From contig OZ246956.1 in NCBI GenBank assembly GCA_965232105.1, positions 3,781,588 to 3,845,587 of the forward strand: a stretch of 64,000 nucleotides of DNA, read 5' to 3'. A program made the position numbers and the translations under genes. This stretch comes from Thermoanaerobaculia bacterium (GTDB taxonomy: Bacteria; Acidobacteriota; Thermoanaerobaculia; Multivoradales; Multivoraceae). This document shows positions 26,057-46,247 of the stretch, piece after piece. Positions within the stretch are counted from its first letter, which is position 1; each line of letters begins with the position of its first letter. The notes beneath the pieces were generated by a model. The model searched no databases and was not told the DNA's origin. It saw only the letters and a list, made by a program, of their open reading frames with translations.

Positions 26057-26244
26057 CGTGAGGCTCCACGGAGTGGACTAACTCCGATTAGTTTACACCA
26101 GAGAACTCCGCTCACATGGCCGGCGCAGCTACCTGCGGCGAAGTTGACGAGTCGACACTCCGAGGCGGTGTACGATCGCCGCCCTCGCGTCCTGGCCCGA
26201 TGCTGCGAGGACGAAGAGTGCCACCGAAAGCCACTGGAACCGCC

Positions 26245-26949: not shown

Positions 26950-27073
26950 GGTCGTCCGCCTCGGCATCGTCAGGTGCGACCCGCTTACCGGCCGGCTATC
27001 CGCACGGTGCGGCGGCGACCGTCGCCGCGTGGCGGGTAGCCTTCCGTCTCCAAAGCTTCCTTCCCGCTCGATA

Positions 27074-27835: not shown

Positions 27836-28812
27836 GCGAAGCCGCGGGCCGCTGTCTCGCGCTGTCCGGCGGTGTCGGCGGCGCCAAGCTGGCACTCGGG
27901 CTGTCTCGGGTGCTGCCGCCTGAAGCACTGACGATCGTCTGCAACACGGCGGACGACTTCGATCATCTCGGGCTCCGCGTCTGCCCCGATCTCGACACGG
28001 TGATGTACACGCTGGCCGGTGTCTCCAACCGCGTCACCGGATGGGGTCAGGCGCACGAAACGTGGTCCTTCCTCGAGGCGCTTTCCCAACTCGGCGGCGA
28101 GACCTGGTTCCGGCTCGGCGACCGGGATCTGGCGACGCACGTCGAGCGCACGCGGAGGCTCCGGAAGGGCGAGAGCCTGACCACGGTGACGGACGCGCTG
28201 TGCCGGGCACTCGGCGTCGAAGCGACCGTGCTGCCGATGAGCGACGACCCGGTGCGCACCGTCGTCGGCACGTCCGGCGGTGAACTGAGCTTCCAGCACT
28301 ACTTCGTGCGCGACCAGTGCGCCCCGGCGGTGACGGGCTTCCGGTTCGAGGGCGTCGATGCCGCGCGGCCGGCGCCGGACTTCCTCGCCGCCCTGGAAGA
28401 CGACGCGACGGCGGCGATCGTCGTCTGCCCCTCGAACCCGTTCGTCAGCGTGGATCCCGTGCTCGCCCTACCGGGAGTCGAGGCGGCGCTGCGGAGCACG
28501 CGGGCGCCCGTCATCGCGGTTTCCCCCATCGTCGGCGGCCAGGCCATCAAGGGTCCGGCGGCCAAGATGATGGTGGAACTGCAGATGCCCGTGACAGCCG
28601 CGGCCGTGGCCCGCCACTACCGGGAGCGCCACCTCCTCGATGGCTTCGTCGTCGACCATGCGGACGCCGGCGAAGCGGCGGAGATCGAGCGGGAGGGCCT
28701 GCCGACCCTGGTCACCGGCACGGTGATGGAGAGCCTGGCCGACCGGGAGCGTCTGGCGCGCGCGGTGCTCGACTTCGCTCGTAGCATCGCCGTACCGGAT
28801 CGCCGAACGTGA
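27832..28812 (+). CDS. cofD: 2-phospho-L-lactate transferase CofD
   Basis: LSGGVGGAKLALGL CofD signature. 326 aa. ATGA overlap with cofE. Confidence 0.85.
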   Translation: MSEAAGRCLALSGGVGGAKLALGLSRVLPPEALTIVCNTADDFDHLGLRVCPDLDTVMYTLAGVSNRVTGWGQAHETWSFLEALSQLGGETWFRLGDRDLATHVERTRRLRKGESLTTVTDALCRALGVEATVLPMSDDPVRTVVGTSGGELSFQHYFVRDQCAPAVTGFRFEGVDAARPAPDFLAALEDDATAAIVVCPSNPFVSVDPVLALPGVEAALRSTRAPVIAVSPIVGGQAIKGPAAKMMVELQMPVTAAAVARHYRERHLLDGFVVDHADAGEAAEIEREGLPTLVTGTVMESLADRERLARAVLDFARSIAVPDRRT

Positions 28813-29507
28813 GTGCGGGCGGTCTCTGGGCGGTCCTGCCGGTCAAGGCCTGGTCCGAGGCCAAGCGACGCCTGTCGCCGATCCTGAGCGGCGAAGAACG
28901 GCAGGAGCTGGCCCGCGCGATGCTGGACGACGTGCTCGGCGCGATCGCGGGCGCCTCACGGATCGCCGGAACACTTGCGGTCACCGCGGACAGGGTTGCT
29001 GCGAGCTACCTGGAAGGGGCCGGATGCGAGGTCCTGGCGGAGCCCAGGCGCGGCCTGAACCGGGCACTGGGCACCGCCGCGGACGAGCTGCGGCGCCGCG
29101 ACGCCTCGACGATGCTGGTGTTGCCCATCGACCTGCCGCTTGTCGTGGCCGACGATCTCGACCGGCTCTGCGGCCACCACCTGGAACAGGGGACCGGGCA
29201 AACCCGGAGCCCGGCTGGCCGGGCGACCGTCACCGTGGCGCCTGACCGATTCCGCTCCGGCACCAACGCCCTCGTCTGCTCGCCGCCTGGCTGCATTCCG
29301 TTCCGCTTCGGCGACGGCAGTTTCCATGCCCATCTCCGGGAAGCGGAACGGGCACAGGCCGCCCACGCGAGCGTCACCCTCAGGAACCTCAGCCTCGACG
29401 TTGACCATCCGGACGACCTGGCCGAACTGCTGCGGCTCAACCACGCCAGCCGCACCGGACGTCTTCTACGCCGACTCGGTGCTCCGTCACGGCTCGAAGG
29501 CCACTGA
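28809..29507 (+). CDS. cofC: CofC (2-phospho-L-lactate / phosphoenolpyruvate guanylyltransferase family)
   Basis: WAVLPVKAWSEAKRRLSP N-terminus typical of CofC/MobA-like nucleotidyltransferases. 232 aa. Overlaps the cofD stop. Confidence 0.75.
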   Translation: MSAGGLWAVLPVKAWSEAKRRLSPILSGEERQELARAMLDDVLGAIAGASRIAGTLAVTADRVAASYLEGAGCEVLAEPRRGLNRALGTAADELRRRDASTMLVLPIDLPLVVADDLDRLCGHHLEQGTGQTRSPAGRATVTVAPDRFRSGTNALVCSPPGCIPFRFGDGSFHAHLREAERAQAAHASVTLRNLSLDVDHPDDLAELLRLNHASRTGRLLRRLGAPSRLEGH

Positions 29508-29566
29508 ACCGGGACTGATACCGTTCGCTATCCGCCGTTGGCGCGTTCTTTCCCGCCGTCATAGCC

Positions 29567-32101
29567 ATGCCGCATCAGCTCAGCGCGTTCCTGGACCGTC
29601 GCCCGACCCCCGACGAAGCCCGTGCGCTTGCCCGCATCGAGCCAGGCGCCGGCCTCGACGAGTTGGTCGATGTCGCCGGTGAACTGCGTGACCGGGGCCA
29701 CGGCAACCTCGTCTCCTACTCGCGCAAGGTCTTCCTGCCGCTGACTCACCTGTGCCGGGACATCTGTCACTACTGCGTCTTCGCCCAGCCGCCGAAGAAG
29801 GGCGAGGCGGCGTACATGCCGCTGGACACGGTCCTGAGCCAGGCGCGCCTGGCCGCCCAGGCCGGCTGCAAAGAGGCGCTCTTCACCCTCGGGGACAAGC
29901 CTGAGCTGCGCTACAAGGCGGCCCGCGAGGGCCTGGCCGAGCTCGGCCACGAGTCGACCCTCTCCTACCTCCGCGAGGCCGCGGAACGGGTGTTTACCGA
30001 GACCGGGCTCCTGCCCCACCTCAACCCGGGCCTGATGACGGCGGAGGACATCGAGCGTCTGCGGCCCGTATCGCCGTCGATGGGCATCATGCTGGAGAGC
30101 GTGTCCATGCGGCTGCACGAGAAGGGCCAGGCCCACTACGGCTGCCCCGACAAGGTGCCGCACCGCAGGCTGGAGACCCTCCGGCTGGCCGGCGAGGCGC
30201 GGGTGCCCTTCACCTCGGGGATCCTGATCGGCATCGGCGAGACCCGCGAGGAACGGATCGACGCCCTGCTCGCGATGCGCGACCTGCACGACGAGTACGG
30301 CCACATCCAGGAAGTCATCGTCCAGAACTTCCGGGCCAAGCCCGAGACCCGGATGGCCGACGCGCCCGAGCCGACACTCGCGGACCTGCTGTGGACGATC
30401 GCCGCGGCGCGCCTCGTGCTCGGACCCGGGATGCACATCCAGGCGCCGCCCAACCTGAGCCCCGGCGTCCTGCCGCAGCTCATAGCGGCCGGCATCGACG
30501 ACTGGGGCGGCGTCTCGCCGGTCACTCCGGACTTCGTCAACCCCGAGGCCCCCTGGCCGCACCTCGAACGCCTGGCCGAGGAGACGGCCGCCGCCGGCAA
30601 GACCCTGGTCGAGCGTCTGACGGTCTATCCCGAGTGGGCGCTCGACGGGGAACGCTGGCTCGACGACGGCCGCGGCCAGAGCCGCGACATTCGCCGCCTG
30701 GGAGGCGTCCGCGCCGCGGTGCTGCAGCGGATCGACGCCACCGGGCTGCCGCGCACGGACGAGTGGTCGCCCGGCGAACAGACGCCGCCGCCACGCGCCG
30801 TCCTGGACGCGGTCACGGCGCCGGTCGCCCGAAACGGCAACGGCAGTGGCCACAGCGCCGTCGACGCGGTCTCAGCGCCTGTCCAGGCCATCCTCGATCG
30901 GGGCCGCTCGGGCTCGGATCTGACCGAGGAGCAGATCGCCACCCTGTTCCGCGCCCGCGGCGCCGACTTCACCGCCGTCTGTTCCGCTGCCGACGCGATC
31001 CGCCGCGAGGTGAACGGCGACACGGTGAGCTACGTCGTCAACCGGAACATCAACTACACGAACGTCTGCTACTTCAAGTGCCAGTTCTGCGCCTTCTCGA
31101 AGGGCAAGCTGAGCGAGAACCTGCGCGGCAAGCCCTACGACCTCGAACTGGAAGAGGTCATGCGCCGCACGGTCGAGGCCTGGCAGCGCGGCGCGACGGA
31201 AGTCTGCATGCAGGGCGGCATCCACCCGGACTACACGGGCGAGACGTATCTCGGAATCTGCCGCGCGGTGAAGGAGGCCGTGCCCGAAATCCACGTCCAC
31301 GCCTTCTCGCCGCTCGAGGTCTGGCAGGGCGCCGCGACCCTCGACATGCCGCTCCGCGACTACCTGCTGCTCCTCAAGGAGGCCGGCCTGGGCACCCTGC
31401 CCGGCACCGCCGCCGAGATCCTCGACGACGAGATTCGCGCAATCATCTGCCCCGACAAGCTGAACACGGACCAGTGGCTCGAGGTGATGGAGACCGCCCA
31501 CGGGGTCGGCTACCGCACGACGGCGACGATCATGTACGGCCACGTCGACGGCCCGCGAAACTGGGCCCGCCACCTGCTACGCCTGCGCGACCTGCAGAAG
31601 CGCACCCGCGGCTTCACCGAGTTCGTGCCCCTTCCCTTCGTCCACATGGAGGCGCCGCTCTACCTCAAGGGCCGCGCCCGCAAGGGGCCGACCTTCCGCG
31701 AGGCCGTGCTGATGCACGCGGTGGCCCGGCTGGCGCTCCACCCCTGGTTCGAAAACGTCCAGGCCTCCTGGGTCAAGATGGGGCCGGAAGGCGTCGCGGC
31801 CTGCCTCAACGCCGGCGTGAACGACCTCGGCGGCACGTTGATGAACGAGAGCATCACCCGCGCCGCCGGTTCCGAGCATGGCCAGGAACTGTCACCGTCC
31901 GAGATGGAGGCGCTGATCCAAAGCGCCGGCCGCGTTCCGAGACAGCGCACGACGCCCTATGGCACGCCGCCGCCGGAACGGGTCGAGACGTCCTTCCAGG
32001 CCGCGGAACTGGCCGCCGTGCTGAACACGCCGGCCCACCGCTATGAGCGCACTGGCCCCTTGCGACTGGTGCGCCCGGGCCTGGAAGCGGACGGCAGCTA
32101 A
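29567..32101 (+). CDS. fbiC: FO synthase FbiC (fused CofG+CofH, two radical-SAM domains)
   Basis: Two CxxxCxxC radical-SAM motifs (CRDICHYCVF; CYFKCQFCAF) in two homologous halves. 844 aa. Confidence 0.9.
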   Translation: MPHQLSAFLDRRPTPDEARALARIEPGAGLDELVDVAGELRDRGHGNLVSYSRKVFLPLTHLCRDICHYCVFAQPPKKGEAAYMPLDTVLSQARLAAQAGCKEALFTLGDKPELRYKAAREGLAELGHESTLSYLREAAERVFTETGLLPHLNPGLMTAEDIERLRPVSPSMGIMLESVSMRLHEKGQAHYGCPDKVPHRRLETLRLAGEARVPFTSGILIGIGETREERIDALLAMRDLHDEYGHIQEVIVQNFRAKPETRMADAPEPTLADLLWTIAAARLVLGPGMHIQAPPNLSPGVLPQLIAAGIDDWGGVSPVTPDFVNPEAPWPHLERLAEETAAAGKTLVERLTVYPEWALDGERWLDDGRGQSRDIRRLGGVRAAVLQRIDATGLPRTDEWSPGEQTPPPRAVLDAVTAPVARNGNGSGHSAVDAVSAPVQAILDRGRSGSDLTEEQIATLFRARGADFTAVCSAADAIRREVNGDTVSYVVNRNINYTNVCYFKCQFCAFSKGKLSENLRGKPYDLELEEVMRRTVEAWQRGATEVCMQGGIHPDYTGETYLGICRAVKEAVPEIHVHAFSPLEVWQGAATLDMPLRDYLLLLKEAGLGTLPGTAAEILDDEIRAIICPDKLNTDQWLEVMETAHGVGYRTTATIMYGHVDGPRNWARHLLRLRDLQKRTRGFTEFVPLPFVHMEAPLYLKGRARKGPTFREAVLMHAVARLALHPWFENVQASWVKMGPEGVAACLNAGVNDLGGTLMNESITRAAGSEHGQELSPSEMEALIQSAGRVPRQRTTPYGTPPPERVETSFQAAELAAVLNTPAHRYERTGPLRLVRPGLEADGS

Positions 32102-32278: not shown

Positions 32279-32557
32279 ATGGAACTCGCGATCACCAAGG
32301 CCAAGGCCCGCCTCTCCGAACTTGTCGCCGCCGCGCAAGACGGCGAGCGCGTCGTCATCACGAAGAACGGCGAACCCGCCGTCGAGCTGGTTCGTTGCAA
32401 GCAGCGTAAGCGCAAGGGCGGCTTCGACTTCGACAAGTGGGAAGCCACCCGGCGCCGGATGGGGATCAAGGACGCGCCGCCGGAAGAGGCCAAGGCGATG
32501 CGCGAAGCGTTCCACGACGCAGCGCTGAGCCGGCGGGTCCTCGGCCTCGACGACTAG
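32279..32557 (+). CDS. Phd/YefM-family antitoxin
   Basis: MELAITKAKARLSELVAAAQDGERVVITKNGEPAVELV. AGGAGG Shine-Dalgarno 8 nt upstream. Confidence 0.7.
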   Translation: MELAITKAKARLSELVAAAQDGERVVITKNGEPAVELVRCKQRKRKGGFDFDKWEATRRRMGIKDAPPEEAKAMREAFHDAALSRRVLGLDD

Positions 32558-32983
32558 CTCCGGCCGTTCGACGATTCGGAAGCGCCGAAGCGCATCCTGC
32601 TGGACGCGTCCTACATCTACAGGCTGATGGAGTTGTACGGGCGATTCCCGGAAGATGCCCGTGCCTTGATTGAGGAGAACGACGCGGAACTCTACGTGAG
32701 CGCGGTGTCCATCTGGGAGATGCGCCTGAAGTACCGCGCTCTTCATCCCTCGGGCGATCGCAAGAGCCCCCACAACCCCAGCGATGTCCTCAAAACACTG
32801 GAGGGCCACGACGTCACGTTCCTGCCAATCGATGCCCATCACGCGGCCCGCGATCTGAACGTGCCGCTCGGGCACAAGGATCCGTTCGATGAGTTATTGC
32901 TCGTTCAGGCCCAGGAAGAGAGGCTCAGATTCCTGACGGCGGACCGGCAGCTCGACGGACATCCCCTGGCCATCACCGTGTAG
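32558..32983 (+). CDS. PIN-domain (VapC-like) toxin. Coding continues in the same frame directly after the antitoxin TAG, with no ATG/GTG/TTG before the catalytic N-terminal Asp (possible pseudogene, non-canonical start or readthrough).
   Basis: In-frame region ...KRILLDASYIYRLMELYG... contains the PIN N-terminal LLDxS Asp. The first ATG (32627) lies downstream of it. The C-terminal region is also PIN-like (VSAVSIWEM..., HKDPFDELLLVQA..., FLTADRQL). Confidence 0.5.
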   Translation, partial: LRPFDDSEAPKRILLDASYIYRLMELYGRFPEDARALIEENDAELYVSAVSIWEMRLKYRALHPSGDRKSPHNPSDVLKTLEGHDVTFLPIDAHHAARDLNVPLGHKDPFDELLLVQAQEERLRFLTADRQLDGHPLAITV

Positions 32984-33436
32984 CTAGCTGTTGGATCGAG
33001 GGATGGTCGCTGAAGCCACAACTGCTGGGCGTTCCGTGCTACACCTTGCCTCCAACGCCGCCAGGAGCTCGTCGTCGCGGAGGAACGCGTAGGACTGCGG
33101 CGGGTGAAACGCCGGTGTCTCGCTCCGCGCGCAGAGAGGCACCTCAAGTTCGGTTATCTCGGTCAGAGTCAGCGCGGCTACGAGTGCGGCATCTCCGACG
33201 TAGGCGTCAAACTCCCAGCGGTCGATGCCGACTCGGTCGCCGAACGCATGCCAGATTTCGTCTGGCGCTTCCAGGGCCACTCCTTGAAGCCGGGCGAATG
33301 CCACCACCTGCCGGCGCGGACTCGTTGCGTAGATCCAGATTCTTGCTCCGGCGGGCGCTCGGACTGCTCGTTTGCGGATCTCGACCGTCTTGCAACCCGA
33401 GATGAGCATGTCGACGTACGGCGGCTTAACCGACAT
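32984..33436 (-). CDS. ASCH-domain (PUA-like fold) protein
   Basis: MSVKPPYVDMLISGCKTVEIRKR matches the ASCH N-terminal GxKT.E.R motif. ~150 aa beta-barrel-sized. Start is 12 nt downstream of the 752-aa gene's stop. Confidence 0.65.
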   Translation of the reverse strand: MSVKPPYVDMLISGCKTVEIRKRAVRAPAGARIWIYATSPRRQVVAFARLQGVALEAPDEIWHAFGDRVGIDRWEFDAYVGDAALVAALTLTEITELEVPLCARSETPAFHPPQSYAFLRDDELLAALEARCSTERPAVVASATIPRSNS

Positions 33437-33447
33437 GAGGATGTCGG

Positions 33448-35706
33448 TCACGAGTCCACTTCTCCGAATCCCGCCGACACGATCCTCAGGAGTTGGTCGT
33501 GTGAAATCGCTTCCGCCGCGACGTAGTTCGCGGGACCGACGCAATCGAGCGTCTTGAGTTCGCTGTAGGAGACTGGCCGGGGGATGCCCGTCAGGCAGTC
33601 GAAGGTGAACGCCGTTACTCGACCTTCAGCGTCGGCGCGGGCTTCGATGTCGGCGGACGTCAGGACACCTTGGCGGCTGAGTGTTGCGACGGCCTCCTCC
33701 TTCGAGAGTGTGGCGGAGAAGGTCGCGCGAGCCACAGCAGCCACTTCCATCCTCGGCTCACTGAGATAGAAGACAACGATCGTCCCGCGTGGTAGGAGCC
33801 CGTGCCGGCCGGCCCGAAAGAAGTAGGCCCGTTCAAGCCGGAGAGCTGCCTCCCGGCCCGGCAGCAGCGACGACTGTGTGACTGTGGGTGGCAGGAGCTG
33901 CTCCGCATAGCTTGGCCGAACCGGCACCACCACGCTCGTGCGGCCGACGGGGAGTAGAAGGCCCGGAGAGATGAGAGTCTCGAAGTCGAAGAGAGGGATG
34001 CGATTCTCGACGGCCTCTGCTTGCCTGATCTCGATGCCCTTGTCGCTTGCTTCGCTCCAGGCGGGCATAGTCGGTGCCAACCGAAGCCCGGTTTGCTCCC
34101 TGAAGTCAGCGGAGAAACTCCGCCAACCGTCTGGCAGCAAGAAGCCGCCGTAGACCAGCTTCGAGAGTGTCGCGCTCGGCCCGCCATTGCCTGTTCGTAC
34201 CCGACGAAAGCCGCAATCGAGCGCGACCTGTTTCGTCGTGAACTTCCCAGCTGCGGAATGGAGGTCAATTCGATAGAGCTTGCCAAAGCTACGGGGCCTT
34301 AGTAGCCAATCGAACAGATGCTCGGCCGTAACCAGCGACTCGGCGCGCGATTCCTCAACGTACACATGGGCAGTCCACGGCTGGCCGAGGATGGTCGGAG
34401 GTGCCAACGCGGCGACCCCGAGGATCCGGTCGGCTGCCCTAACCACGCGCTGTTCGGTGGGTTGCTGGGTCGTGCCCGGATTCAGGACGGCATCCCTGCG
34501 GTCAGCCGGTAGGCCGAGGCGTTCAAGGAAGTTCGCTAGGGCTGCGCGATCGCTGTCCTTCAGCGGACCTCCAGACAGGAGGCTATGGTCGACCTCGGCG
34601 GTGACCCGTGAAGCGCCGTGTCCGGCTGCGGTGGGGAGCGGCGGAGCCAGATCCGCCGGTGCGGCGACCCTGAGGCCGTATTGATCCCGTAGTAGTTCGG
34701 CGTGCGAAAGGATCCGACCGTCTCGCGAGACAAAGCCGTAGGCGCGATGGTAGATGCAGGCTGCGAGATGGCGTAGGTCGGAAGTGTCCGTGATGCCACG
34801 CTTGCTGGTGACATCGGAGGTCAGCCCCATCGAGTCTCGCAGTGCGCTCGTCAGCCGAGCAACCTGGTCTACCGGGGGCTCTGGAAGGCGGGGGAGACTG
34901 CGGGCTGCTTGCAGGAACTCGTCGTTCGGTTCGACGGACGTCCTCTCCAACTCACGTATCAGTTCAGCGGTGACGACGATGGGGACTGCTCCAAGCAGCC
35001 ACAACGATTGCCCCCGGTCGCGCTGCCTCAGGGCGTCGAACACGACATTCAAGTCGAGCACCCAGCGACGTGCCGGAAGTCGTGGCCTGTCGCGGAACGT
35101 GATCGCCTCGGCGGCGGGCGGTGGGCTTTCGTCCCGCGGCGACGGCTTGCGGAAGAGCGACGGAACATCGAGTTCCCTAAGGTAGACGTTGATCTCCCGG
35201 TTGGTCGTCCTGCCGCCGAGTTCCGTGCGGTGGAGCGCAAAGCCGTGGCGCACCCAGAACTGGTTCGCCGGGAGATCTGCGGCCACGCGGGCCGTGATGC
35301 CGAGGACGGAGTGCTGTTCGCCGTAGCGCACAAGCTCGTTGAGCAGCCCTCCCGCCACACCTTGTCGTCGTGCGGTTTCAAGCGTGAAGATCTGAAACAC
35401 CTTCAACTGCTGGTGAGTGCCTCCGAAGCGGAGGAATCCGGCCACTTCCCCACTGCTCGGCCGAGTCGCGACCCAGAGCCGACGCCTGCGCGCTGACTGC
35501 CGATAGACCGCTGGCGTGAAGAACCCGAGTTCCCTCGTGTGGACGTCGGCCGTGGCGACTATCTGGTCGACGTAGGGGAGTACGTCGCTCGGCTGCTTGA
35601 GAATCGTGATTCGGGTCAAACGGGTTTCTCGCATGTGGTCAGGGAATCCTCCTGGGTAAACGCGACGTTGCGCACCGAGTCCTTCATGGACCAAGACGGA
35701 TTCCAT
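33448..35706 (-). CDS. Large multidomain protein with N-terminal GNAT acetyltransferase domain and uncharacterised middle/C-terminal regions. Likely true start is ATG 35635 (MRETRLTRIT).
   Basis: GNAT motif A (RRQGVAGGLLNELVRYGEQHSVLGITARV...NQFWVRHGF). Middle segment has PIN-like strings (RWVLDLNVVFDAL...VTAELIREL). AGGAGG lies ~12 nt upstream of ATG 35635. Confidence 0.55.
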   Translation of the reverse strand: MESVLVHEGLGAQRRVYPGGFPDHMRETRLTRITILKQPSDVLPYVDQIVATADVHTRELGFFTPAVYRQSARRRRLWVATRPSSGEVAGFLRFGGTHQQLKVFQIFTLETARRQGVAGGLLNELVRYGEQHSVLGITARVAADLPANQFWVRHGFALHRTELGGRTTNREINVYLRELDVPSLFRKPSPRDESPPPAAEAITFRDRPRLPARRWVLDLNVVFDALRQRDRGQSLWLLGAVPIVVTAELIRELERTSVEPNDEFLQAARSLPRLPEPPVDQVARLTSALRDSMGLTSDVTSKRGITDTSDLRHLAACIYHRAYGFVSRDGRILSHAELLRDQYGLRVAAPADLAPPLPTAAGHGASRVTAEVDHSLLSGGPLKDSDRAALANFLERLGLPADRRDAVLNPGTTQQPTEQRVVRAADRILGVAALAPPTILGQPWTAHVYVEESRAESLVTAEHLFDWLLRPRSFGKLYRIDLHSAAGKFTTKQVALDCGFRRVRTGNGGPSATLSKLVYGGFLLPDGWRSFSADFREQTGLRLAPTMPAWSEASDKGIEIRQAEAVENRIPLFDFETLISPGLLLPVGRTSVVVPVRPSYAEQLLPPTVTQSSLLPGREAALRLERAYFFRAGRHGLLPRGTIVVFYLSEPRMEVAAVARATFSATLSKEEAVATLSRQGVLTSADIEARADAEGRVTAFTFDCLTGIPRPVSYSELKTLDCVGPANYVAAEAISHDQLLRIVSAGFGEVDS

Positions 35707-35847: not shown

Positions 35848-38670
35848 CTACCGCCTCGGAGGTAGCCGCCTCCGAGGCCGTTTCCTAGTTCCGCGAACCG
35901 CCTCGACTGAGATCGGCGCCTGCATCCGTTCGTAGAGTCCGAGAAGGTGTTCCAGACGGTCACTCTCGCTCTTGAAGCGCTCAGGTCGATAGAGCCTGTC
36001 AACGGCCCGATCGAGGTTCTGATGGGCTCTCCTCAGAGCGGCGGGCATAAGGTCGGGGTCGTAGAGATCGGCCAGGGTCGCGTCCAAGTGTTCCGAACGA
36101 GCGTCGAGGACCGCCTGCGCCAGCGGACTCAGCCCCGACCTCCCTGACTCTGCCGGTTCGGAGAAACCCGCCGGGGTCGGAAAGGTGTTGTAGACGACGC
36201 CGACGGAGTACATGTAGTCGCTCTTCATCCGTCCCGTGACAGTTCGCACCCACGCCATGTGCATGGCGGACGTCAGTAAAGCGAACTCCGGCAGAGTCGC
36301 CTCCGGCAGGATCCGGAGCTTCTGATTCGCCACGACCTCAGGCGTAAGCCAGCCGATTGGAATGTAATGTCGTCGCTCCGAGCTCGTGTTGGGCAACACC
36401 AGGAACGGCTCCGCGAGCCTGTGGTCGACGCCAACCTGGGTCGGAAAGCTCGCCATCCTCACCGTGCTCTCCCGCGAACGGGACGCTCGATAGCGCCTCA
36501 CCGCGGCCACCCGCTCCGCCACCTGCGGAAGCCGCCGGAGTTCGGTCGGTGACGCGTCCGCCAAGTACAGAATCCACCGATGAAAGCCGTTGATGTACTC
36601 GTCGCCTCCGATATAGCGCCGAAAGAACTTCGCCGCGCCGGGTTCATGGGCGAGAAACTCCTCGCGTTCATCTCCGGTGAAGGTCAGGAGTCCGTTGTCG
36701 ATCATCTGAACACCGGTCTTGAGGCGACGAAGCCCGTTGATGGGGTGGCTGACCTTTCTGACCGTCAGATGTGGGTCCGTCATTCTGGTGGCGTCGAACA
36801 GATACGGCGAGAGAGCCCGACAACGCTGCTCGTCGGGCTCGCCATTCACGTCCGCGTAGCTGAACAGGCGCTTGACCGGACGCTCGTCCTGGCGCCGGTC
36901 AACACCCACGATCACGACATGCACATGGGCCTTCCCACGGGCGTCCGACCCCCAGGCAAAGGTCCGATGCGCGAAGGCAAGGTCAAGGTCATACCTGTCG
37001 AAGAGAACTGGCCACAGGAGGCCGACCTGCTCGCCCTGCGTCACGGAGTTGGTCGCAACAAGGCCGATGCGGACAGGCTTGCCAGCTTGGCTGACGTAAG
37101 CTCCTGCCTTGATGAACCAGGCGGCCACGTAGTCAAGAGTGCCCCCTTGCTTGCCGAGTTGGGCGACTCGGCGCACTTGGGCGGCCTGCTCCTTGCTCTG
37201 CTGACTCTTACCCCGAAACGGCGGATTGCCGAAGACATAGTCGCAGTTCCCGGGTGGCAGGACATCAGCCCAGTCCATCTCCAACGCATCCCCGTGCACG
37301 ATGTCCGGGGTCGTCCGAAGCGGAATCCGCGTGTAGGTTGCACCGAACTCCAGGCTCAGGCGGTTGTTCATCATGTGGTCCATCATCCACAGCGCGGTCT
37401 CTGCGATGCGGGCGGGGAACTCCCCCAGCTCGATGCCGTGGAACTGGTCGACATCGATCATCGACATCCGATCGGCAAGGCTCTCCAGCACGGGCCCCGT
37501 ATACAGTTCCTTCAGCACCTCGAGTTCGAGAACGCGAAGCTCCCGGTAGGCGATGATCAGGAAATTGCCGCAGCCGCAGGCCGGGTCGAAGAAGGTCACT
37601 TCGCCGAGGCGTCTCTGGAACCTCAACAGCTCGGCCCGGCGCCGGCCGTCCTTGCGGGCCTGAAGCCGTTTGAATTCGGCCCGAAGATCGTCGAGAAACA
37701 ACGGCTCGATCACCTTCAGGATGTTCTTCTCGGTCGTGTAGTGCGCCCCTTGCGCGCGCCGCTCCGCGGGTGCCATGACGGACTGGAACAGGGCACCGAA
37801 GATCGCGGGCGAGATCGTAGACCAGTCGAAGCTGCACGCATCAAGGACGGCCCTGCGCATCAAGGCGTCGAAGGACGGGATCGTCAGAGGCCCGTCGAAC
37901 AGGTCGCCGTTGACGTAAGGGAAACGGGCGAGATCCTCGTCCAACGTCGCCTGACGGGTCTCCGCAGGAGTGTTCAGAACCTGAAACAACTGCGACAGCC
38001 AAAGTCCGAAGTCCGCACCGTCCTCGCCGGTTCGACTCTCGAGAAGGTCGAAAAGGATGTCGCGAGGCTCGAAGATGCCCGTATCGTCCGCGAAAAGACA
38101 GAACACGAGCCGGACCAGGAAGCGCTCCAGATCAGGCCCAGCGTAGCCGGCTGCCGCGAGGGCGTCGTGGACCTTGCCAACCAGTTCGGCCGCCTCGATG
38201 TTCGCCGGGTCCTGGTCGCGAAACACCCGGCGCTCGACGCCAAGAATGAAGCCGAAGCTCTCGACATTCTCCGGCAGGTCCTGGAGAGCGAAGCTGGTGA
38301 CCGCCCGCTCTCCAAGATCGTGTAGTTCGAAGGTCTGGAAGTCGCTGACCAGGATGTACCGGGGTCGCTCCCGGTCCGCAAGAGCATCCGAGTACTCTCC
38401 CGCCTGACCGTACGCTTTGTCTAGATCGCGCCCGGCGCTCTTCTGCTCCACGATGAGCACGCCAGGCCAGAAGAGGTCGATGAAGCCGCTCCTGTCGTCC
38501 AGCTTCCGAACGTGTTCCTCGTAGCGCGCGACCGTGCGGCGACGGACCCCGAAGACTTCGAAGAACTCGTTGTAGAAGCTATGCGTCTCTCCCTTCTCGT
38601 ACTCCGCGTCCCGCCATTCCTTGGCGAACGCCGCGGCGCGAACCCTTACCTCGTTCCAGGAGAGACGCAC
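35848..38670 (-). CDS. MmeI-family type IIL restriction-modification enzyme (fused PD-ExK endonuclease + N6-adenine methyltransferase + target-recognition domain)
   Basis: N-terminus LSWNEVRVRAAAFAKEWRDAE...FIDLFWPGVLIVEQKS carries the D-x-E-x-K nuclease motif. MTase motif I FFDPACGCGNFLI and motif IV FGNPPFRGKS. C-terminal TRD contains the family-typical ...MKSDYMYSVGVVYNTFP. The ORF-track first ~105 aa are an Ala/Ser/Arg-rich frame artefact, so a GTG start at 38670 is proposed. Confidence 0.8.
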   Translation of the reverse strand: MRLSWNEVRVRAAAFAKEWRDAEYEKGETHSFYNEFFEVFGVRRRTVARYEEHVRKLDDRSGFIDLFWPGVLIVEQKSAGRDLDKAYGQAGEYSDALADRERPRYILVSDFQTFELHDLGERAVTSFALQDLPENVESFGFILGVERRVFRDQDPANIEAAELVGKVHDALAAAGYAGPDLERFLVRLVFCLFADDTGIFEPRDILFDLLESRTGEDGADFGLWLSQLFQVLNTPAETRQATLDEDLARFPYVNGDLFDGPLTIPSFDALMRRAVLDACSFDWSTISPAIFGALFQSVMAPAERRAQGAHYTTEKNILKVIEPLFLDDLRAEFKRLQARKDGRRRAELLRFQRRLGEVTFFDPACGCGNFLIIAYRELRVLELEVLKELYTGPVLESLADRMSMIDVDQFHGIELGEFPARIAETALWMMDHMMNNRLSLEFGATYTRIPLRTTPDIVHGDALEMDWADVLPPGNCDYVFGNPPFRGKSQQSKEQAAQVRRVAQLGKQGGTLDYVAAWFIKAGAYVSQAGKPVRIGLVATNSVTQGEQVGLLWPVLFDRYDLDLAFAHRTFAWGSDARGKAHVHVVIVGVDRRQDERPVKRLFSYADVNGEPDEQRCRALSPYLFDATRMTDPHLTVRKVSHPINGLRRLKTGVQMIDNGLLTFTGDEREEFLAHEPGAAKFFRRYIGGDEYINGFHRWILYLADASPTELRRLPQVAERVAAVRRYRASRSRESTVRMASFPTQVGVDHRLAEPFLVLPNTSSERRHYIPIGWLTPEVVANQKLRILPEATLPEFALLTSAMHMAWVRTVTGRMKSDYMYSVGVVYNTFPTPAGFSEPAESGRSGLSPLAQAVLDARSEHLDATLADLYDPDLMPAALRRAHQNLDRAVDRLYRPERFKSESDRLEHLLGLYERMQAPISVEAVRGTRKRPRRRLPPRR

Positions 38671-38677
38671 TTCCGAC

Positions 38678-39718
38678 CTACAGCACCGCCTCCGCGATCG
38701 CGTCGAGCGCCTCCGGCTGCTGGCAGCCCAACAGCATCGAAGCGACCTGGCCGTTGCGGCCGGCTTCCTTCCAGGCCGCGAGACGGTCGACGATCCGCTC
38801 CTTCGGGCCGACCAGGGCGAGATCGTCGACCAGGGCATCCGGCACGGCGCCGATGGCCTCGCTTTTCTTGCCGCCGAGGAAGTTGTCCTGGATGACCTTG
38901 GCCGCGTCAGGGTAGCCGAGGCGCCTGGCGTAGTCGTTGTAGAAGTTCTTGTCGCGCGCGCCCATGCCGCCGATGTACAGGGCAAGATTCATCTTGACCG
39001 GAGTGCGGCACTGTTCCACGTCGTCGCCCATCACGACGGTGACGAAGGGCATGACCTTGAAGTCGTCCAGGCTCTTGCCGCCGCCGGCCTTGGCGAAGCC
39101 CCGTCCCAGCGCATCTTCGAACAGATCGAAGCGCTCCGGGTTCATCCACACCGGGAACACGCCGTCAGCGACCTCGGCACTGCACTCGACGCCCTTCGGG
39201 CTGATCGACGCGGTGTAGATCGGGATCGATGTGTCGGCGGCGAGAATGCTCCGGAGCGGCTTGCCGAGACCCGTCCCGTCATCGCCGCGGTACGGCAATT
39301 GGTAGTGATAGCCGTCGTAGGTCGCGGGCTCCTCGCGAGCGAAGATCTGACGCACGATGTCGATGTACTCCTTCGTGCGCGTCAGCGGCCGGCCATAGGC
39401 GACGCCGTGCCAGCCCTCGATCACCTGCGGTCCTGACGGCCCCAGGCCAAGCAGGAAGCGGCCCCCGGAGAGCTGATTCAGGGTCAAGGCGGTCATCGCG
39501 GTCATCGCCGGGCTGCGCGCCGGCATCTGCATGATCGCGGTGCCGACCTTGATCTTCTCGGTCTGAGCGAGGATCCACGCCGCGGGCGTCACCGCGTCGT
39601 TGCCGTAGGCCTCGGCCGTCCAAACCGAAGTAAAGCCGGCGCTCTCCGCCTGCCGGATGCGGTCGATCGGAATGTTGATCTGGCTGCCGAAGCCGCCCGA
39701 GAGCAGTCCTAGTTCCAT
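38678..39718 (-). CDS. LLM-class F420-dependent oxidoreductase (luciferase-like monooxygenase family)
   Basis: 346 aa LLM TIM-barrel pattern (GFTSVWTAEAYG...; GRFLLGLGPSG...). Ends 8 nt upstream of the MmeI-like gene's proposed start. Confidence 0.7.
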   Translation of the reverse strand: MELGLLSGGFGSQINIPIDRIRQAESAGFTSVWTAEAYGNDAVTPAAWILAQTEKIKVGTAIMQMPARSPAMTAMTALTLNQLSGGRFLLGLGPSGPQVIEGWHGVAYGRPLTRTKEYIDIVRQIFAREEPATYDGYHYQLPYRGDDGTGLGKPLRSILAADTSIPIYTASISPKGVECSAEVADGVFPVWMNPERFDLFEDALGRGFAKAGGGKSLDDFKVMPFVTVVMGDDVEQCRTPVKMNLALYIGGMGARDKNFYNDYARRLGYPDAAKVIQDNFLGGKKSEAIGAVPDALVDDLALVGPKERIVDRLAAWKEAGRNGQVASMLLGCQQPEALDAIAEAVL

Positions 39719-41933: not shown

Positions 41934-42033
41934 CTGAACCGGACTCGACGGCCCGTCGTGGGTGGGCTGGCATACCAGCAGGACGAAGTCACGTCTCTTG
42001 GTTCCGACCCGGTTCTCGACGCATAATCAGCCG

Positions 42034-42714
42034 ATGCCGCAAATGAAGCGCATTCTCTGCTTGGCCAACTCCCGGAAACTGAGCGGGCGCTGTCTCGCTG
42101 GCCGGGAGTTCGACGGGCTCAAGGCTGGACCCTGGATACGGCCGGTTAGCGACCGGGAGCACGAGGAGGTCTCCGAACGCGAACGGCAGTACGAGGACGG
42201 TAGCGATCCGCGGGTCCTCGATGTGATCGACGTGCCACTCCGCGAACCGCGTCCAAGCGGGTACCAGGTGGAGAACTGGCTGCTCGATCCGAAGTACTAC
42301 TGGCAGAAAGCGGGGAGACTGCCCCACACCGAGTTGCCGAGATTCAGCGAGCCGAACCGGACTCTCTGGATCGACGGGCACAGCACCAGGACCGGCAGGA
42401 ACGACAAGATCCCGCTGGATCTCCTGCCTTCGGTCAAGAGTTCTCTTCGTTTGATCCATGTCGAGGCCCTGACTCTCGCCGTGTTCGCGCCAAGCGAGGC
42501 GTTCGGCAATCCGAAGCGCCGGGTGCAGGGCCGGTTCGCCTATGCCGGCTGCGACTACGCTTTCTGGGTCACTGATCCGAGTCTTGAGAAGCAGTACCTG
42601 GTACGGCCCGACGGCGACTACGAGATGGGCGAGTGCTACCTGACCGTCAGCCTGGGCGAGCCCTACGGCGATGCCTGCTACAAGCTGATCGCAGCCGTGA
42701 TCGAGCTCGACTAG
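42034..42714 (+). CDS. Hypothetical protein with N-terminal Cys pair (CLANSRKLSGRCLAG) and W.RPV motif. First gene of a 3-gene cassette.
   Basis: ORF only; no family recognised. Lower G+C than flanking genes. Confidence 0.45.
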   Translation: MPQMKRILCLANSRKLSGRCLAGREFDGLKAGPWIRPVSDREHEEVSERERQYEDGSDPRVLDVIDVPLREPRPSGYQVENWLLDPKYYWQKAGRLPHTELPRFSEPNRTLWIDGHSTRTGRNDKIPLDLLPSVKSSLRLIHVEALTLAVFAPSEAFGNPKRRVQGRFAYAGCDYAFWVTDPSLEKQYLVRPDGDYEMGECYLTVSLGEPYGDACYKLIAAVIELD

Positions 42715-42720
42715 AGAACC

Positions 42721-43368
42721 GTGAGGCGCACCCGCAGTTCGACCGTCTTGACCGTCGGCCATTCGAATCACTCGATCGAGCGGCTCAAGGAACTGCTGCA
42801 CACGTATCGAGTCACAGCCGTCGCCGACATTCGCTCGGCACCCTACAGCCGCTTTAGCCCTCAGTTCAACAAGGAAAGCCTCGCGGCATGGTTGCACAAC
42901 ACGGGTATCGCCTATGTGTTCCTGGGACGCGAACTGGGCGGCCGCTCCCAGGATCCGTCCGACTACGAGAATGGGCACGTCTGCTACGACCGGCTGGCGG
43001 CGAAACCGACCTTCGAGTCCGGCATCGAACGTATCCTGCTGGGAGCGTTGAAGGAGAGGATTGCCCTGCTCTGCGCCGAGAGGGAACCCCTCGACTGCCA
43101 CCGCACCTTGCTCGTAGGCCGAGCCTTGGCCGAGCGGGGGGTCCAGGTCGAGCATATTCTCGCCGACGGAGGATTGGAGAACCACGCCCAGACGATGGAC
43201 CGCTTACTGGACATGACCGGGCTAAGGCAGGCGGACCTGTTCAACCGGGCCGACAACGGTTCCCGCAGAGCCGTTGACGCAATCTCTGAAGCAATCGACC
43301 TGCGGGCGGCCCAAGTGGGTCACACCCGGACCGATCAGCCCACCAAGGACGAATCGAGGAACCGATGA
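42721..43368 (+). CDS. DUF488-family protein
   Basis: N-terminus LTVGHSNHSIERLKELL...VADIRSAPYSRFSPQF matches the DUF488 pattern (TiGHSn.s.e.F...L.....vvDVRs.P.S). GTG 42721 or TTG ~42748 start. Confidence 0.6.
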   Translation: MRRTRSSTVLTVGHSNHSIERLKELLHTYRVTAVADIRSAPYSRFSPQFNKESLAAWLHNTGIAYVFLGRELGGRSQDPSDYENGHVCYDRLAAKPTFESGIERILLGALKERIALLCAEREPLDCHRTLLVGRALAERGVQVEHILADGGLENHAQTMDRLLDMTGLRQADLFNRADNGSRRAVDAISEAIDLRAAQVGHTRTDQPTKDESRNR

Positions 43369-43802: not shown

Positions 43803-43856
43803 ACCCTCCCGACCTGAGGCTGAGCCTCAACCCAGTGCGTGCGACCTGCGGGCCCG

Positions 43857-46247
43857 TCAGGCCCGAGCAACCGCCGGCCGGTTCAGGACCGCGAGCGCCA
43901 CGAACAGGACCGCTCCCACCCCGTTCACCGCGACGCCCAGAGCCGGACCGCCCAGGTCGGGAACGAGCAGCAGGGCCGCCGAAACCAGCATCAGGACCCG
44001 CAGAGGCCTGCTCAACTCGGAGCGCAGGTAGCCGCTGACCCCCGCGGCCAGAGCCAGGATCCCGACGACCGCCGCGCCCAGGGCGAGCAACAGCGGCGGC
44101 AGGCCGGCGGCCCCGGCCGCGAAGAGGCTCCCACCGTCCTCGTCCATCAACAGCAGCGCCGGCCGGTAGACGAACATGTAGGGCAGCGTGAAGCCGACGA
44201 GGGCGAAGCGGAACGCCGCCAGCGCCGTGCGCATGACTGGCGCCTGCGCCAGGCTGGCTGCCGCGTAGGCCGCCAGCGCTACCGGCGGCGTAACCATGGA
44301 CATCATCCCGAAGTAGAAGATGAACAGGTGCGCGGCGAGCGGAATCACGCCGAGTTCCGACAGCAGCGACCCCATCAGCGTCGCCATGAGCAGGTAGCAG
44401 ACGACGGACGGCACGCCCATCCCGAGGGCGAGCGACGTGACCATGATCCCGAGCAGGGCCAGGAACAGGTTGGTCGCCACGACCGACTTGATCGCGGCGC
44501 TGAAGTCAACCGCGATGCCGGTCTGCTGGACGATGCCGATGATCGTGCCGACGCAGGCGCTCGCGGCGACCAGCGGAATCCCGTTGCGGGCCGCCTTGGT
44601 CAGGGCGCCGAGGATGTGCGGGCGCCACGCGTGGTGAATCAGCCCGAAGACCATCAGCCCGAGCATCGCCACGATCCCCGAGGAGAGCCAGGACTCGAAG
44701 ACCTGCCGGAAAGACGGGTCGGCCGGCGTGTCCGCCCACACGAGCTGATGGACGATCGCAACCGCGCCGAAGCAGCCCAATGTCAGGTAGCGCAGCCTCT
44801 TCGGCAGGTCGAACTCCTTGCGCACCACCGCGAGGAGCAGGATCACGATCAACGACCCGGTGACCGCTCGGAACGGCGAGAACCGCAGCAGCAACAACAG
44901 GATCAGAGCCCCGAGCGCGGAAACGAAGACGATCGCGTCGAAGCGCCGCACCGGCAGCGGCTCGCCTTCCCGCTCCGGCGTCCCGACCCGTCTAGCGTAG
45001 AAGTGGACGATCAGGAAGATCGACAGGTAGAAGAGCACCGCCGGCAACAGGGCCGCCTGCACGATCTGCAGGAAGGTCACCTGGGGCTCGACGATCTCGA
45101 GCATCATGTAGGCGCCGGCGCCCATGACCGGCGGCACCAGCGCACCGCCGGACGCAGCCGCCGCCTCGACCGCCGCCGCCACGTGCCGCCTGAAGCCGTT
45201 GCTGCGCATCATCGGGATGGTGAAGGCGCCGGTCGTCACCGCGTTCGCGACCGCGCTGCCGGACAGCGAGCCCAGAAGGCCGCTGCTGAGTACCGCGACC
45301 TTTGCCGGGCCGCCGGGCTTGGTGCCGAACACCCGTTCGGCGAACCGCATGATGAACTGCGTCGCGCCGGACATCTCGAGGAAGGCCCCGAACACGACGA
45401 ACAGGAAAACGTAGCGGAACATGACCGAGGCCGCCGGGCCGAACACGCCCAGGCTCTGCAGGAAGGTGGTGCCGACCACGTCGCGGGGGTTCTGGCCGGC
45501 ATGCGGGAAGAGCCAGTCCGGCAGGATCGGCCACCCGTTGCGGAGGCTGTAGTAGCAGTACAGCGTGTGCGCGACGAAGACCAGCGCCAGCGCCGGCACG
45601 ATCCAGCCGATGCTGCGCCGGGCCGCCTCGAGGACGAGCACCAGGCCGATCAGCCCGAGCACGATGTCGGCGCCGGTTTCGATTCCGGCCCGGTTGCCGA
45701 GCGATCGGCCTCCCGACCAGAGATGCTCGAAGGCGGGCTCCGTCTGCACGACGACGTACGCGCAGGCCGCCGCCGCCGCGAGGCCCAGCACCAGGTCCAG
45801 ACCGCGCAGCCAACGGTTCGAAGCCAGCCTCGCGTGAACGGGAAAGGCGAGAAAACAGAGCAGCAGGCCGCCGCCGACGAACACCGCCAGCGACGACTGC
45901 GGCAGCAGGACGCCGTAGTTGACCTCGAACAGGACGAAGAAGCACAGACCGACGCCGAGCGCCGCGATCAGGAAGCGGCGGAACCGTTCAAGGCTCGCCG
46001 GACCTGAGCTCGATTCCTCGGCTCCGGCGGATGCGGGCGAGACGCCCGCGTTCCCGGAAGGCACGGCGACTGGCGTGGGCGACTGGTCTGGCGCGCTCAA
46101 CCGGCGGCTTCGGGCCAGACGCCGATCTCGCGGTAGAAGCGTTCCGCGCCCGGATGGAAGGGGGTGCCGGTGTAGCGCGCCACGTTCGCCTCGTTGATCG
46201 CGCGCCCGGCGGGATGCTTGTCGGCCACCGACTGGCGATTGTCCCAA
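43857..46247 (-). CDS. TRAP transporter fused permease (4TM/12TM DctQM-like fusion). True start probably internal, since the ORF-track start overlaps the TAXI gene by 150 nt.
   Basis: ~16+ TM segments. TRAP DctM-like helices. Adjacent to a TAXI receptor. Confidence 0.75.
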   Translation of the reverse strand: MGQSPVGGRQASRRARDQRGERGALHRHPLPSGRGTLLPRDRRLARSRRLSAPDQSPTPVAVPSGNAGVSPASAGAEESSSGPASLERFRRFLIAALGVGLCFFVLFEVNYGVLLPQSSLAVFVGGGLLLCFLAFPVHARLASNRWLRGLDLVLGLAAAAACAYVVVQTEPAFEHLWSGGRSLGNRAGIETGADIVLGLIGLVLVLEAARRSIGWIVPALALVFVAHTLYCYYSLRNGWPILPDWLFPHAGQNPRDVVGTTFLQSLGVFGPAASVMFRYVFLFVVFGAFLEMSGATQFIMRFAERVFGTKPGGPAKVAVLSSGLLGSLSGSAVANAVTTGAFTIPMMRSNGFRRHVAAAVEAAAASGGALVPPVMGAGAYMMLEIVEPQVTFLQIVQAALLPAVLFYLSIFLIVHFYARRVGTPEREGEPLPVRRFDAIVFVSALGALILLLLLRFSPFRAVTGSLIVILLLAVVRKEFDLPKRLRYLTLGCFGAVAIVHQLVWADTPADPSFRQVFESWLSSGIVAMLGLMVFGLIHHAWRPHILGALTKAARNGIPLVAASACVGTIIGIVQQTGIAVDFSAAIKSVVATNLFLALLGIMVTSLALGMGVPSVVCYLLMATLMGSLLSELGVIPLAAHLFIFYFGMMSMVTPPVALAAYAAASLAQAPVMRTALAAFRFALVGFTLPYMFVYRPALLLMDEDGGSLFAAGAAGLPPLLLALGAAVVGILALAAGVSGYLRSELSRPLRVLMLVSAALLLVPDLGGPALGVAVNGVGAVLFVALAVLNRPAVARA

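Follow-up and report, generated by a model that had tools for sequence, protein, structure and literature searches.

A two-gene module, called A-B here, was found in a 64,000-nucleotide stretch of DNA (the window) from a Thermoanaerobaculia bacterium (assembly GCA_965232105.1, contig OZ246956.1), and is very probably a member of the 'PIN-GNAT-PUA plus ASCH' class of putative defence or toxin-antitoxin (TA) operons. Protein A displayed the domain order GNAT1 (with motif A kept), PIN, degenerate GNAT2 (GNAT*) and ASCH-like barrel, and gene B encodes a stand-alone ASCH protein of the ZmASCH type, closely coupled in translation to A. Features by which the class is recognised were present: a PIN domain N-terminal to a GNAT-like domain from which motif A is missing, a C-terminal PUA-like barrel and an ASCH gene in the operon. 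A defence role for A-B is considered probable. The overall explanation favoured here, that A-B is a toxin/antidote-like nucleic-acid effector backing up methylation-based immunity, is finely balanced, and a toxin/antidote mode of action, as predicted from the sequences, is possible rather than probable.

Domain composition of proteins A and B

Translation of A more likely begins at M25 (position 35634) than at the upstream ATG; the resulting form of 728 amino acids (aa) is favoured by the public gene calls, a database cluster (P0001), the alignments of homologues and an upstream AGGAGG. Residues of A are numbered according to this form, and 24 should be added for the 752-aa form. Domain boundaries (Table 1) were derived from AlphaFold (AF2) models based on 49 homologues together with Pfam, hhalign and conserved residues. 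The full-length model of A had a predicted local distance difference test (pLDDT) score of 79 and a predicted template modelling (pTM) score of 0.68, and a separate model of residues 338-728 had a pLDDT of 89 and a pTM of 0.89.

An initial annotation, made from the letters of the window without database searches, had described the open reading frames (ORFs) of a 752-aa GNAT protein and an ASCH protein as co-oriented, with a GNAT motif at the N-terminus of the former, a PIN-like stretch and a possible beta-barrel at its C-terminus. The ORFs and all three features were recovered, and the AF2 models gave a GNAT-PIN-GNAT*-ASCH-like architecture and not that of a metabolic enzyme. The only Pfam match in the window copy of A was the N-terminal GNAT (Acetyltransf_1, E 8e-7, residues 73-158 of the 752-aa form). 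The public annotation is 'GNAT family N-acetyltransferase'. Motif A of GNAT1 reads R89-R-Q-G92-V-A94; among the 49 homologues R89 was conserved in at least 90%, and G92 and A94 in at least 70%. The best PDB sequence matches of GNAT1 were generic GNATs at E 0.005 or worse. A specific similarity to TmcA, TacT or AtaT, enzymes with which the GNAT domain had initially been compared, was sought in the PDB sequence search and none was detected.

The PIN_3 match in the window copy of A was below threshold (E 0.001-0.002). Across the family, PF13470 was matched by 17 of 19 members (best E 1.6e-10) and PF01850 by 12 of 19. Residues D194, N196, D200, E224, E228, D286 and H289 were invariant, the acidic D194, E224, E228 and D286 in 49 sequences with identities down to 24%, and in the T303-x-D305 motif T303 was conserved in at least 90% and D305 in at least 70% of these sequences. 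Based on the Pfam matches in relatives and the conserved acidic residues, the PIN-like stretch is, as judged by sequence, a genuine PIN domain. A profile of the PIN segment had no match among PDB sequences.

The third domain is, according to the models, a degenerate GNAT, and its residue conservation revealed that motif A is missing. Alignment of GNAT2 with GNAT1 by hhalign was in register and not significant (E 0.005, probability 7%), so that the GNAT assignment of this domain rests on structure. The C-terminal barrel was aligned to the B family with a probability of 94-95% (E 5e-8), compared to less than 0.3% for the PIN and GNAT2 segments used as controls. A Foldseek search of viral structures with the full model of A gave only single-domain GNAT or ASCH matches.

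Protein B was matched by Pfam ASCH (E 3e-5), by the PADLOC profile PDC-M11B along its full length (E 1.2e-25, residues 1-123 on profile positions 5-126 of 132) and, by phmmer, to ZmASCH of Zymomonas mobilis (ZMO0922, PDB 5guq/5gus; E 9e-14, residues 2-125). The octapeptide of B, SGCKTVEIR, belongs to the GKER class; this class and GK[T/S]R are used as defined in 10.64898/2026.02.27.708502. The comparison with YqfB made initially did not hold, since the YqfB type is an ASCH protein of about 100 aa with a GK[T/S]R octapeptide, whereas B has 150 aa and GKER, and its homologue ZmASCH does not hydrolyse free N4-acetylcytidine (ac4C). B is instead of the ZmASCH type: the ZmASCH cleft residues Tyr47/Lys53/Ser128 are Y/R/S in B, the K to R replacement being conservative, and the likeness thus extends to the RNA-binding and cleavage residues. 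ZmASCH binds nucleic acid and shows a weak, Mg-dependent RNase activity that is confined to single-stranded RNA (ssRNA) (PMC5615036), and a 2026 preprint reported that 19 ASCH proteins including ZmASCH strip ac4C from tRNA in vitro, ZmASCH being inactive on free ac4C and without significant effect in vivo (10.64898/2026.02.27.708502).

ZmASCH itself also matched PDC-M11B (E 3e-29). Its neighbour differs from that of B: a co-oriented gene 48 nucleotides (nt) upstream of ZmASCH (locus L060, 4825-5952) encodes a 375-aa protein without Pfam or PADLOC match. This protein was excluded as an A-like neighbour (hhalign probability 0.1%). ZmASCH is accordingly an orphan with respect to A, and its activities in vitro may not mirror the role of B in the pair. 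The 375-aa protein may have gone unnoticed as the partner of an orphan ASCH of the PDC-M11B type.

Conservation, distribution and genomic neighbourhood of the A-B pair

A scan of GTDB contigs, one genome per species, with a single peptide pattern gave 55 loci, a number that is a lower bound. B was located directly downstream of A on the same strand in 51 of the 55, and the four exceptions were truncated matches. The distance from the stop of A to the first conserved residue of B was 7-35 nt in 47 of the 48 loci measured (median 16), and the divergence of A was correlated with that of B (Spearman 0.78). The pairing is far beyond chance, and the two-gene module suggested from the window alone is co-conserved.

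A word-indexed search identified 75 clusters of A homologues, most of them full length at approximately 720-740 aa, with the 728-aa form as cluster P0001. When the part of A from the PIN domain to the C-terminus was used with phmmer, 720 representatives at 50% identity were obtained at E <=1e-3 and 217 at E <=1e-30. Among the best 150 of the 720, nearly all were 700-745 aa long and the match began near residue 180, which makes the N-terminal GNAT the rule in the A family. Three-domain relatives without GNAT1 were in this search represented only by a few short matches, which were fragments or had doubtful starts.

Loci were found in at least five phyla: Acidobacteriota (Thermoanaerobaculia, Ca. 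Multivorans, Holophagales, Vicinamibacterales and Terriglobia), Latescibacterota, Spirochaetota (Spirochaetia), Pseudomonadota (Alpha- and Gammaproteobacteria) and Desulfobacterota. Searches by tblastn for relatives of A gave none in 50,697 phage records and one in 72,556 plasmid records. The plasmid copy, from Caulobacter rhizosphaerae (L062, NZ_CP048816, 3262-8885), has A and B arranged as elsewhere, preceded in the same orientation by genes for a class I S-adenosylmethionine (SAM)-dependent methyltransferase, two hypothetical proteins and an 815-aa 'NTP pyrophosphohydrolase', and an HNH endonuclease is encoded further downstream; the PLSDB gene table does not list its ASCH ORF (11159-11512).

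Approximately eight loci (L011, L014, L027, L042, L044, L053, L054 and L055) contained an interrupted A and a B that was still present, the reading frame of A being broken by a TGA or TAG codon, shifted once or twice, disrupted by an insertion, or truncated. These copies could reflect decay of a costly effector or errors in the assembly of metagenome-assembled genomes (MAGs). The same state was ruled out for L013, L028 and L039, where the frames are intact.

Neighbouring genes were identified by clustering of ORFs within 8 kb followed by Pfam and PADLOC scans. Defence genes occurred, by simple count, in at least 22 of the 51 loci, and the expected position of the pair beside genes of the restriction-modification (RM) or BREX type was in this way borne out. 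A large N6-adenine methyltransferase system (MmeI-like, DrmD-DrmMI, PglX/BREX or type ISP) directly abutted A-B in approximately 20 of these defence loci. An MmeI-like or DrmMI methyltransferase was encoded directly upstream and co-oriented in approximately 16 loci, 13 of which had a DrmD SNF2 helicase (PADLOC E 0) upstream of the methyltransferase, forming a DrmD-DrmMI-A-B cassette. The DrmMI ORF ended within a few nt of the start of the A match, in the same orientation, in L008, L010, L013, L028, L039 and L043. Other arrangements were a PLD-SNF2 protein with a PglX-like methyltransferase upstream (L012), a type ISP-like methyltransferase directly downstream (L003 and L005), and PglX-PglZ-BrxL (L037), DrmA-DrmB (L040) or a Septu-like pair (L032) upstream. 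HEC-01 and DarG genes were near A-B in some loci.

DrmA, DrmB and DrmC were not found among ten large ORFs within 8 kb downstream of DrmD-DrmMI-A-B in seven loci, nor upstream in L056, the sole locus viewed to 10 kb. In the latter, a Vicinamibacterales MAG, an RHH/PIN (VapBC-like) pair (5199-5877) lies between the DrmD-like helicase and DrmMI, upstream of A-B. The remaining approximately 30 of the 51 loci had heterogeneous neighbours (integrases, HNH, ABC ATPases, SecA and metabolic genes) and no adjacent methyltransferase. The occurrence of A-B also away from defence genes argues that the module is autonomous and mobile, and we regard its horizontal mobility with high confidence.

Table 1. 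Features of the A-B module and adjacent genes; positions are those of the window and residues those of the 728-aa form of A.
Feature	Position	Strand	Residues or length	Remarks
Gene A, four-domain GNAT-PIN-GNAT*-ASCH-like	33448..35634	-	728 aa
Gene A, alternative upstream ATG at 35706	33448..35706	-	752 aa
GNAT1	35164..35634	-	1-157	Pfam Acetyltransf_1/7/10
Linker, disordered or low-confidence			158-188 (about 30 residues)	AF2
PIN (VapC-like, PIN_3) nuclease domain	34645..35070	-	189-330
GNAT2, GNAT fold without motif A	34144..34614	-	341-497
Small alpha/beta linker subdomain	33955..34143	-	498-560
C-terminal ASCH/PUA-like beta-barrel	33451..33954	-	about 561-728
Gene B, stand-alone ASCH protein	32984..33436	-	150 aa from ATG
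Gene B, alternative GTG start	33451 (start)	-	155 aa	overlaps stop of A as GTGA
MmeI-type (type IIL/IIG) RM gene	35848..38670	-		Pfam, PADLOC
PhdYeFM antitoxin/PIN (VapC-like) toxin pair	32279..32983	+		Pfam PIN E 5e-11; PhdYeFM_antitox and PIN calls in L057

On the minus strand of the window the order is MmeI-type RM gene, A and B, all co-oriented and each intact by ORF calls. The ATG of B lies 11 nt past the stop of A; the public gene calls use the GTG instead. The window has a G+C content of approximately 68%, which falls to 62.7-64.2% at 33-39 kb, compared to approximately 68-73% in the adjacent flanks (26-32 kb and 40-42 kb), confirming the richness in A/T that had been noticed. A scan of 32.2-39.9 kb for promoters and terminators gave nothing beyond shuffled expectation. 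The PhdYeFM/PIN pair and B are convergent, with the VapC stop at 32983 and the end of the ASCH ORF at 32984 (tail-to-tail), and more TA pairs are located 7-9 kb off on the same side of the module. The bracketing by TA pairs given in the initial annotation is therefore correct for that side, whereas on the other side a luciferase-like monooxygenase gene was found.

The MmeI-type gene, correctly recognised at the outset, ends 141-213 nt upstream of A. MmeI_N, MmeI_hel, MmeI_Mtase, MmeI_TRD and MmeI_C were all matched by Pfam (E 5e-25 to 4e-81) in an uninterrupted frame, and PADLOC gave a REase_MTase_IIG match (E 0). It is a possible functional partner of A-B. A contig 99.93% identical to the window (L057, ENA ERZ21861969) carries a C to T change at window position 37999 by which the MmeI codon TGG (Trp223) becomes TGA, separating the N-terminal nuclease/spacer part from an ORF with the methyltransferase, target recognition and C-terminal domains. 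The restriction half may in this way have been inactivated naturally. Between the window and L057, A and B do not differ.

The island formed by the TA pair, B, A and the MmeI-type gene is located between an F420-biosynthesis cluster (26116-32101; CofH/G-like radical SAM protein, CofC, CofD and F420 ligase) and the luciferase-like monooxygenase gene (38678-39718), which ends a few nt before the start of MmeI. In one relative, L001, a neighbourhood with AMP-binding and MmeI genes is kept. Relative to the otherwise collinear L057, the window contains approximately 1.9 kb extra at 41935-43872, with a G+C content of approximately 63% and ORFs such as 41989..43185 (-), 398 aa. Terminal repeats were looked for around this insertion (41.9-43.9 kb) and none were found, and it had no sequence relatives in the PDB. 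At 44001-46000 an unusually strong AT skew (+0.32) was observed within a stretch of 69% G+C, which is overlapped by a long 722-aa ORF on the plus strand (43839..46007) and another of 796 aa on the minus strand (43857..46247).

Proposed mechanism and competing explanations

The function of A-B may, at moderate to low confidence, be depicted as follows: A would be the effector, its rigid unit of GNAT2 and the ASCH-like domain binding to single-stranded nucleic acid in which a base is flipped or modified; RNA, for instance tRNA, is the most plausible ligand. Cutting of the bound target, most likely RNA, would fall to the PIN domain, since VapC-type PIN domains and ZmASCH both act on ssRNA, and GNAT1, on its flexible linker, would acetylate a target with acetyl-CoA. 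B would bind the same type of ligand or A itself, and in the uninfected cell A would be kept harmless by competition or by reversal of acetylation. A would be set free, and the cell arrested or invader RNA destroyed, once infection occurs or the adjacent methylation-based system fails. The module would in this way serve as a second line beside, and often in operon with, defence genes for large N6-adenine methyltransferases, a back-up role that is inferred by analogy with further modules lodged within BREX and RM loci. For the class as a whole, the literature predicts a role in defence or one like that of TA systems (PMC5499597, PMC7641849), and the tentative idea of a toxin/antidote or nucleic-acid acylation module, put forward from the sequence of the window, agrees with these computational predictions. 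The low-G+C island and the disrupted copies of A with B kept are further signs in the same direction.

Several points weigh against this explanation. The class is known from computational prediction, and the PADLOC entry PDC-M11 is a candidate. The order of a large 'toxin' followed by a small 'antidote', with no DNA-binding antitoxin, is atypical for type II TA systems. The usual Tyr of motif B is in GNAT1 replaced by a conserved Trp (F126-W127). The operonic DNA methyltransferases and the predicted reading of N6-methyladenine (m6A) in DNA by ASCH (PMC4738411) point to DNA and not to RNA. ZmASCH cleaves RNA weakly and had no significant ac4C activity in vivo. Faulty MAG assembly may account for the disrupted copies of A, and the association with defence genes is a plain count of loci.

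The methyltransferases are central to a different explanation, by which A-B is an integrated reader and effector arm: the ASCH-like domain of A and/or B would read the m6A mark of the adjacent enzyme, or its absence, and target the PIN nuclease and the acetylating GNAT at nucleic acid that is unmarked or comes from an invader. DrmD-DrmMI-A-B would then be a four-gene DISARM-like system with A-B in place of DrmABC. The position of A a few nt after DrmMI, co-oriented, in the six loci listed above is consistent with this, as are the failure to find DrmA, DrmB or DrmC downstream (ten ORFs, seven loci) or upstream in L056, the membership of every adjacent methyltransferase (MmeI, DrmMI, PglX and type ISP) in large single-chain N6-adenine families, and the predicted role of ASCH as an m6A reader tied to such enzymes (PMC4738411). 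However, approximately 30 of the 51 loci are without an adjacent methyltransferase, and the pair can thus function by itself; in the window the gap of 141-213 nt separates A from an MmeI-type enzyme that has its own nuclease, and in the 99.93%-identical strain A and B are unchanged beside the MmeI nonsense codon. PIN_3/VapC-type domains are moreover usually RNases, and that ASCH reads m6A is still no more than a prediction (PMC11037411). We consider such an integrated arm rather unlikely. It is unlikely that DrmD-DrmMI-A-B, and by extension MmeI-A-B and PglX...A-B, constitutes an unrecognised methylation-based immune system in which the two ASCH-type domains read adenine methylation or another base modification and the PIN domain and active acetyltransferase replace DrmABC as the effector.

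Acetylation would be the core of the system if A and B were, as the initial annotation had suggested among its options, a writer and an eraser, GNAT1 adding an N-acetyl mark (ac4C on tRNA, RNA or DNA, or N-acetyl-aminoacyl-tRNA) and B removing it, as a reversible toxic or marking modification. The acetyl-CoA motif retained in GNAT1, the GKER octapeptide of B with the reported removal of tRNA ac4C by its homologue ZmASCH in vitro (10.64898/2026.02.27.708502), and the nucleic-acid acetylation proposed for the class by Iyer et al. 2013, as far as it is cited in PMC7641849 and PMC5499597, all favour this. Yet the ancestral PIN-GNAT*-PUA core has no active GNAT (PMC5499597) and is always accompanied by the ASCH partner, so the role of B cannot in general depend on acetylation. 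GNAT1 is without specific similarity to TmcA, TacT or AtaT, ZmASCH is inactive on free ac4C with no significant effect in vivo, and the invariant PIN active site would be left unexplained, making a writer and eraser quite unlikely. A selfish addiction module of the TA kind, without anti-phage role, which builds up in variable islands, stabilises them and shares them with the defence genes gathered there, would account for the autonomy of A-B in heterogeneous contexts, for the TA pairs adjoining it in the window and the VapBC between DrmD and DrmMI in L056, and for the placement of the class among extended TA operons (PMC5499597). A-B does, however, overlap or abut DrmMI within one operon in several loci, which suggests more than co-location, and only one match was obtained in 72,556 plasmids, where addiction modules are usually common. 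We consider pure addiction quite unlikely, and as many TA-like modules have proved to be abortive-infection systems, it overlaps with the toxin/antidote-like effector preferred here. The public annotation and the resemblance of GNAT1 to generic GNATs would fit a housekeeping or metabolic acetyltransferase (for modification of an antibiotic, a peptide or tRNA) with accessory RNA-binding domains. This is scarcely credible in view of the sporadic spread (55 loci as a lower bound), the low-G+C island, the invariant PIN site, the obligate ASCH partner, the defence neighbours and the disruption of some copies.

The PIN-GNAT-PUA/ASCH class has been flagged computationally since 2013 and is uncharacterised, and the window provides a clean, intact example of it and a well-defined experimental target. 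That a motif-A GNAT has been added in a large sub-family (more than 200 representatives at 50% identity, E <=1e-30) whose internal GNAT is inactive speaks for the importance of acetyl transfer. The assignment of B to the ZmASCH subfamily, for which a crystal structure, ssRNA cleavage and removal of tRNA ac4C have been reported, leads to concrete assays. The recurrence of A-B in one operon with DrmD-DrmMI, in loci in which DrmABC was not detected, hints that DISARM-like systems may possess a new effector arm. Should the unlikely methylation-based immune system nevertheless be real, it would be the first case of immunity in which a reader of modified bases controls an enzyme that acetylates nucleic acid or tRNA. 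Immunity based on acetylation or on an ASCH reader would be a new biochemical principle in phage defence, and would give bacterial ASCH readers beside adenine methyltransferases their first function.

Relation to known systems

The initial annotation had held that no named system has this architecture, which was not upheld: the class was described in 2013, 2017 and 2020, and PADLOC contains the candidate PDC-M11. Matelska et al. 2017 defined PIN_15 and PIN_17 as PIN domains followed by a GNAT-like domain without motif A and a PUA-like domain, in operons that always hold a second PUA/ASCH gene, and interpreted them as extended toxin-antitoxin systems (PMC5499597). Bell, Wolf & Koonin 2020 found that '(PIN)-GNAT-EVE' operons almost always encode an ASCH protein and often adjoin type I RM and other defence systems, none being characterised (PMC7641849). 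Nucleic-acid acetylation by the class was proposed by Iyer et al. 2013, a source seen here through its citation in PMC7641849 and PMC5499597. Iyer et al. 2016 noted that ASCH domains occur as fusions with N6-adenine methyltransferases or share operons with them, and predicted that they read m6A (PMC4738411), which is still unconfirmed (PMC11037411).

A shares with the PIN-GNAT-EVE/PUA plus ASCH class the order of PIN, GNAT-like domain without motif A and PUA-like barrel, and the A-B pair also shares the second ASCH gene, the sporadic spread and the association with RM and defence genes. It differs by the extra motif-A GNAT in front of the PIN domain, by the lack of a helix-turn-helix (HTH) fusion in B and of an AAA_17 ATPase gene, and by its neighbours, which are single-chain methyltransferases (MmeI, DrmMI, PglX and ISP) where those of the published class are type I HsdRMS. 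PIN_15 and PIN_17 were compared by description, and the PADLOC PDC-M11A profile served as the sequence proxy. PDC-M11, one of the phage defence candidates (PDC) from guilt-by-embedding (Payne et al. 2024, preprint 10.1101/2024.01.29.577857), is the closest PADLOC entry to A-B, and BREX, DISARM and RM-type context is common to both. While the match of B covers the whole of PDC-M11B, only the C-terminal approximately 150 residues of A matched PDC-M11A (profile positions 313-460 of 486, E 5e-11), and the profiles are 376-501 aa long compared to 728 aa for A. Of 49 members of the A family, 47 matched PDC-M11A and no other PADLOC family (best E 4.6e-19), again by way of the C-terminal barrel alone, these being plain hidden Markov model matches.

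The GNAT toxins of type II (TacT, AtaT, ItaT and KacT) resemble A-B as acetyl-CoA-dependent GNATs in a two-gene toxin/antidote-like operon, for which a tRNA-directed mechanism is plausible. These toxins are single domains of approximately 170 aa with an upstream RHH antitoxin, whereas A has four domains, an ASCH partner downstream, no RHH gene and no detected sequence similarity to them. Small autonomous modules embedded in BREX and RM loci, such as the type IV enzymes BrxU/GmrSD and the ABC ATPase-nuclease pairs of the PARIS/HEC-01 type, are likewise thought to be complementary or to act as back-up; their domains are unrelated to those of A-B, and HEC-01-like pairs occur in A-B islands.

Class 1 DISARM consists of DrmD, DrmMI, DrmA, DrmB and DrmC, and homologues of the first two (PADLOC E 0) directly precede A-B in one orientation in 13 loci. 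The DrmABC core was not found there (downstream in seven loci and upstream in one), and the window differs from DISARM in having the MmeI-type enzyme and neither DrmD nor DrmMI. The papers searched made no mention of DrmD or DrmMI together with ASCH, PUA or an acetyltransferase. Relative to the literature examined, what is new is the recurrent DrmD-DrmMI-A-B cassette, in which no DrmABC was found in the loci viewed, and the motif-A GNAT placed before the PIN-GNAT*-PUA core.

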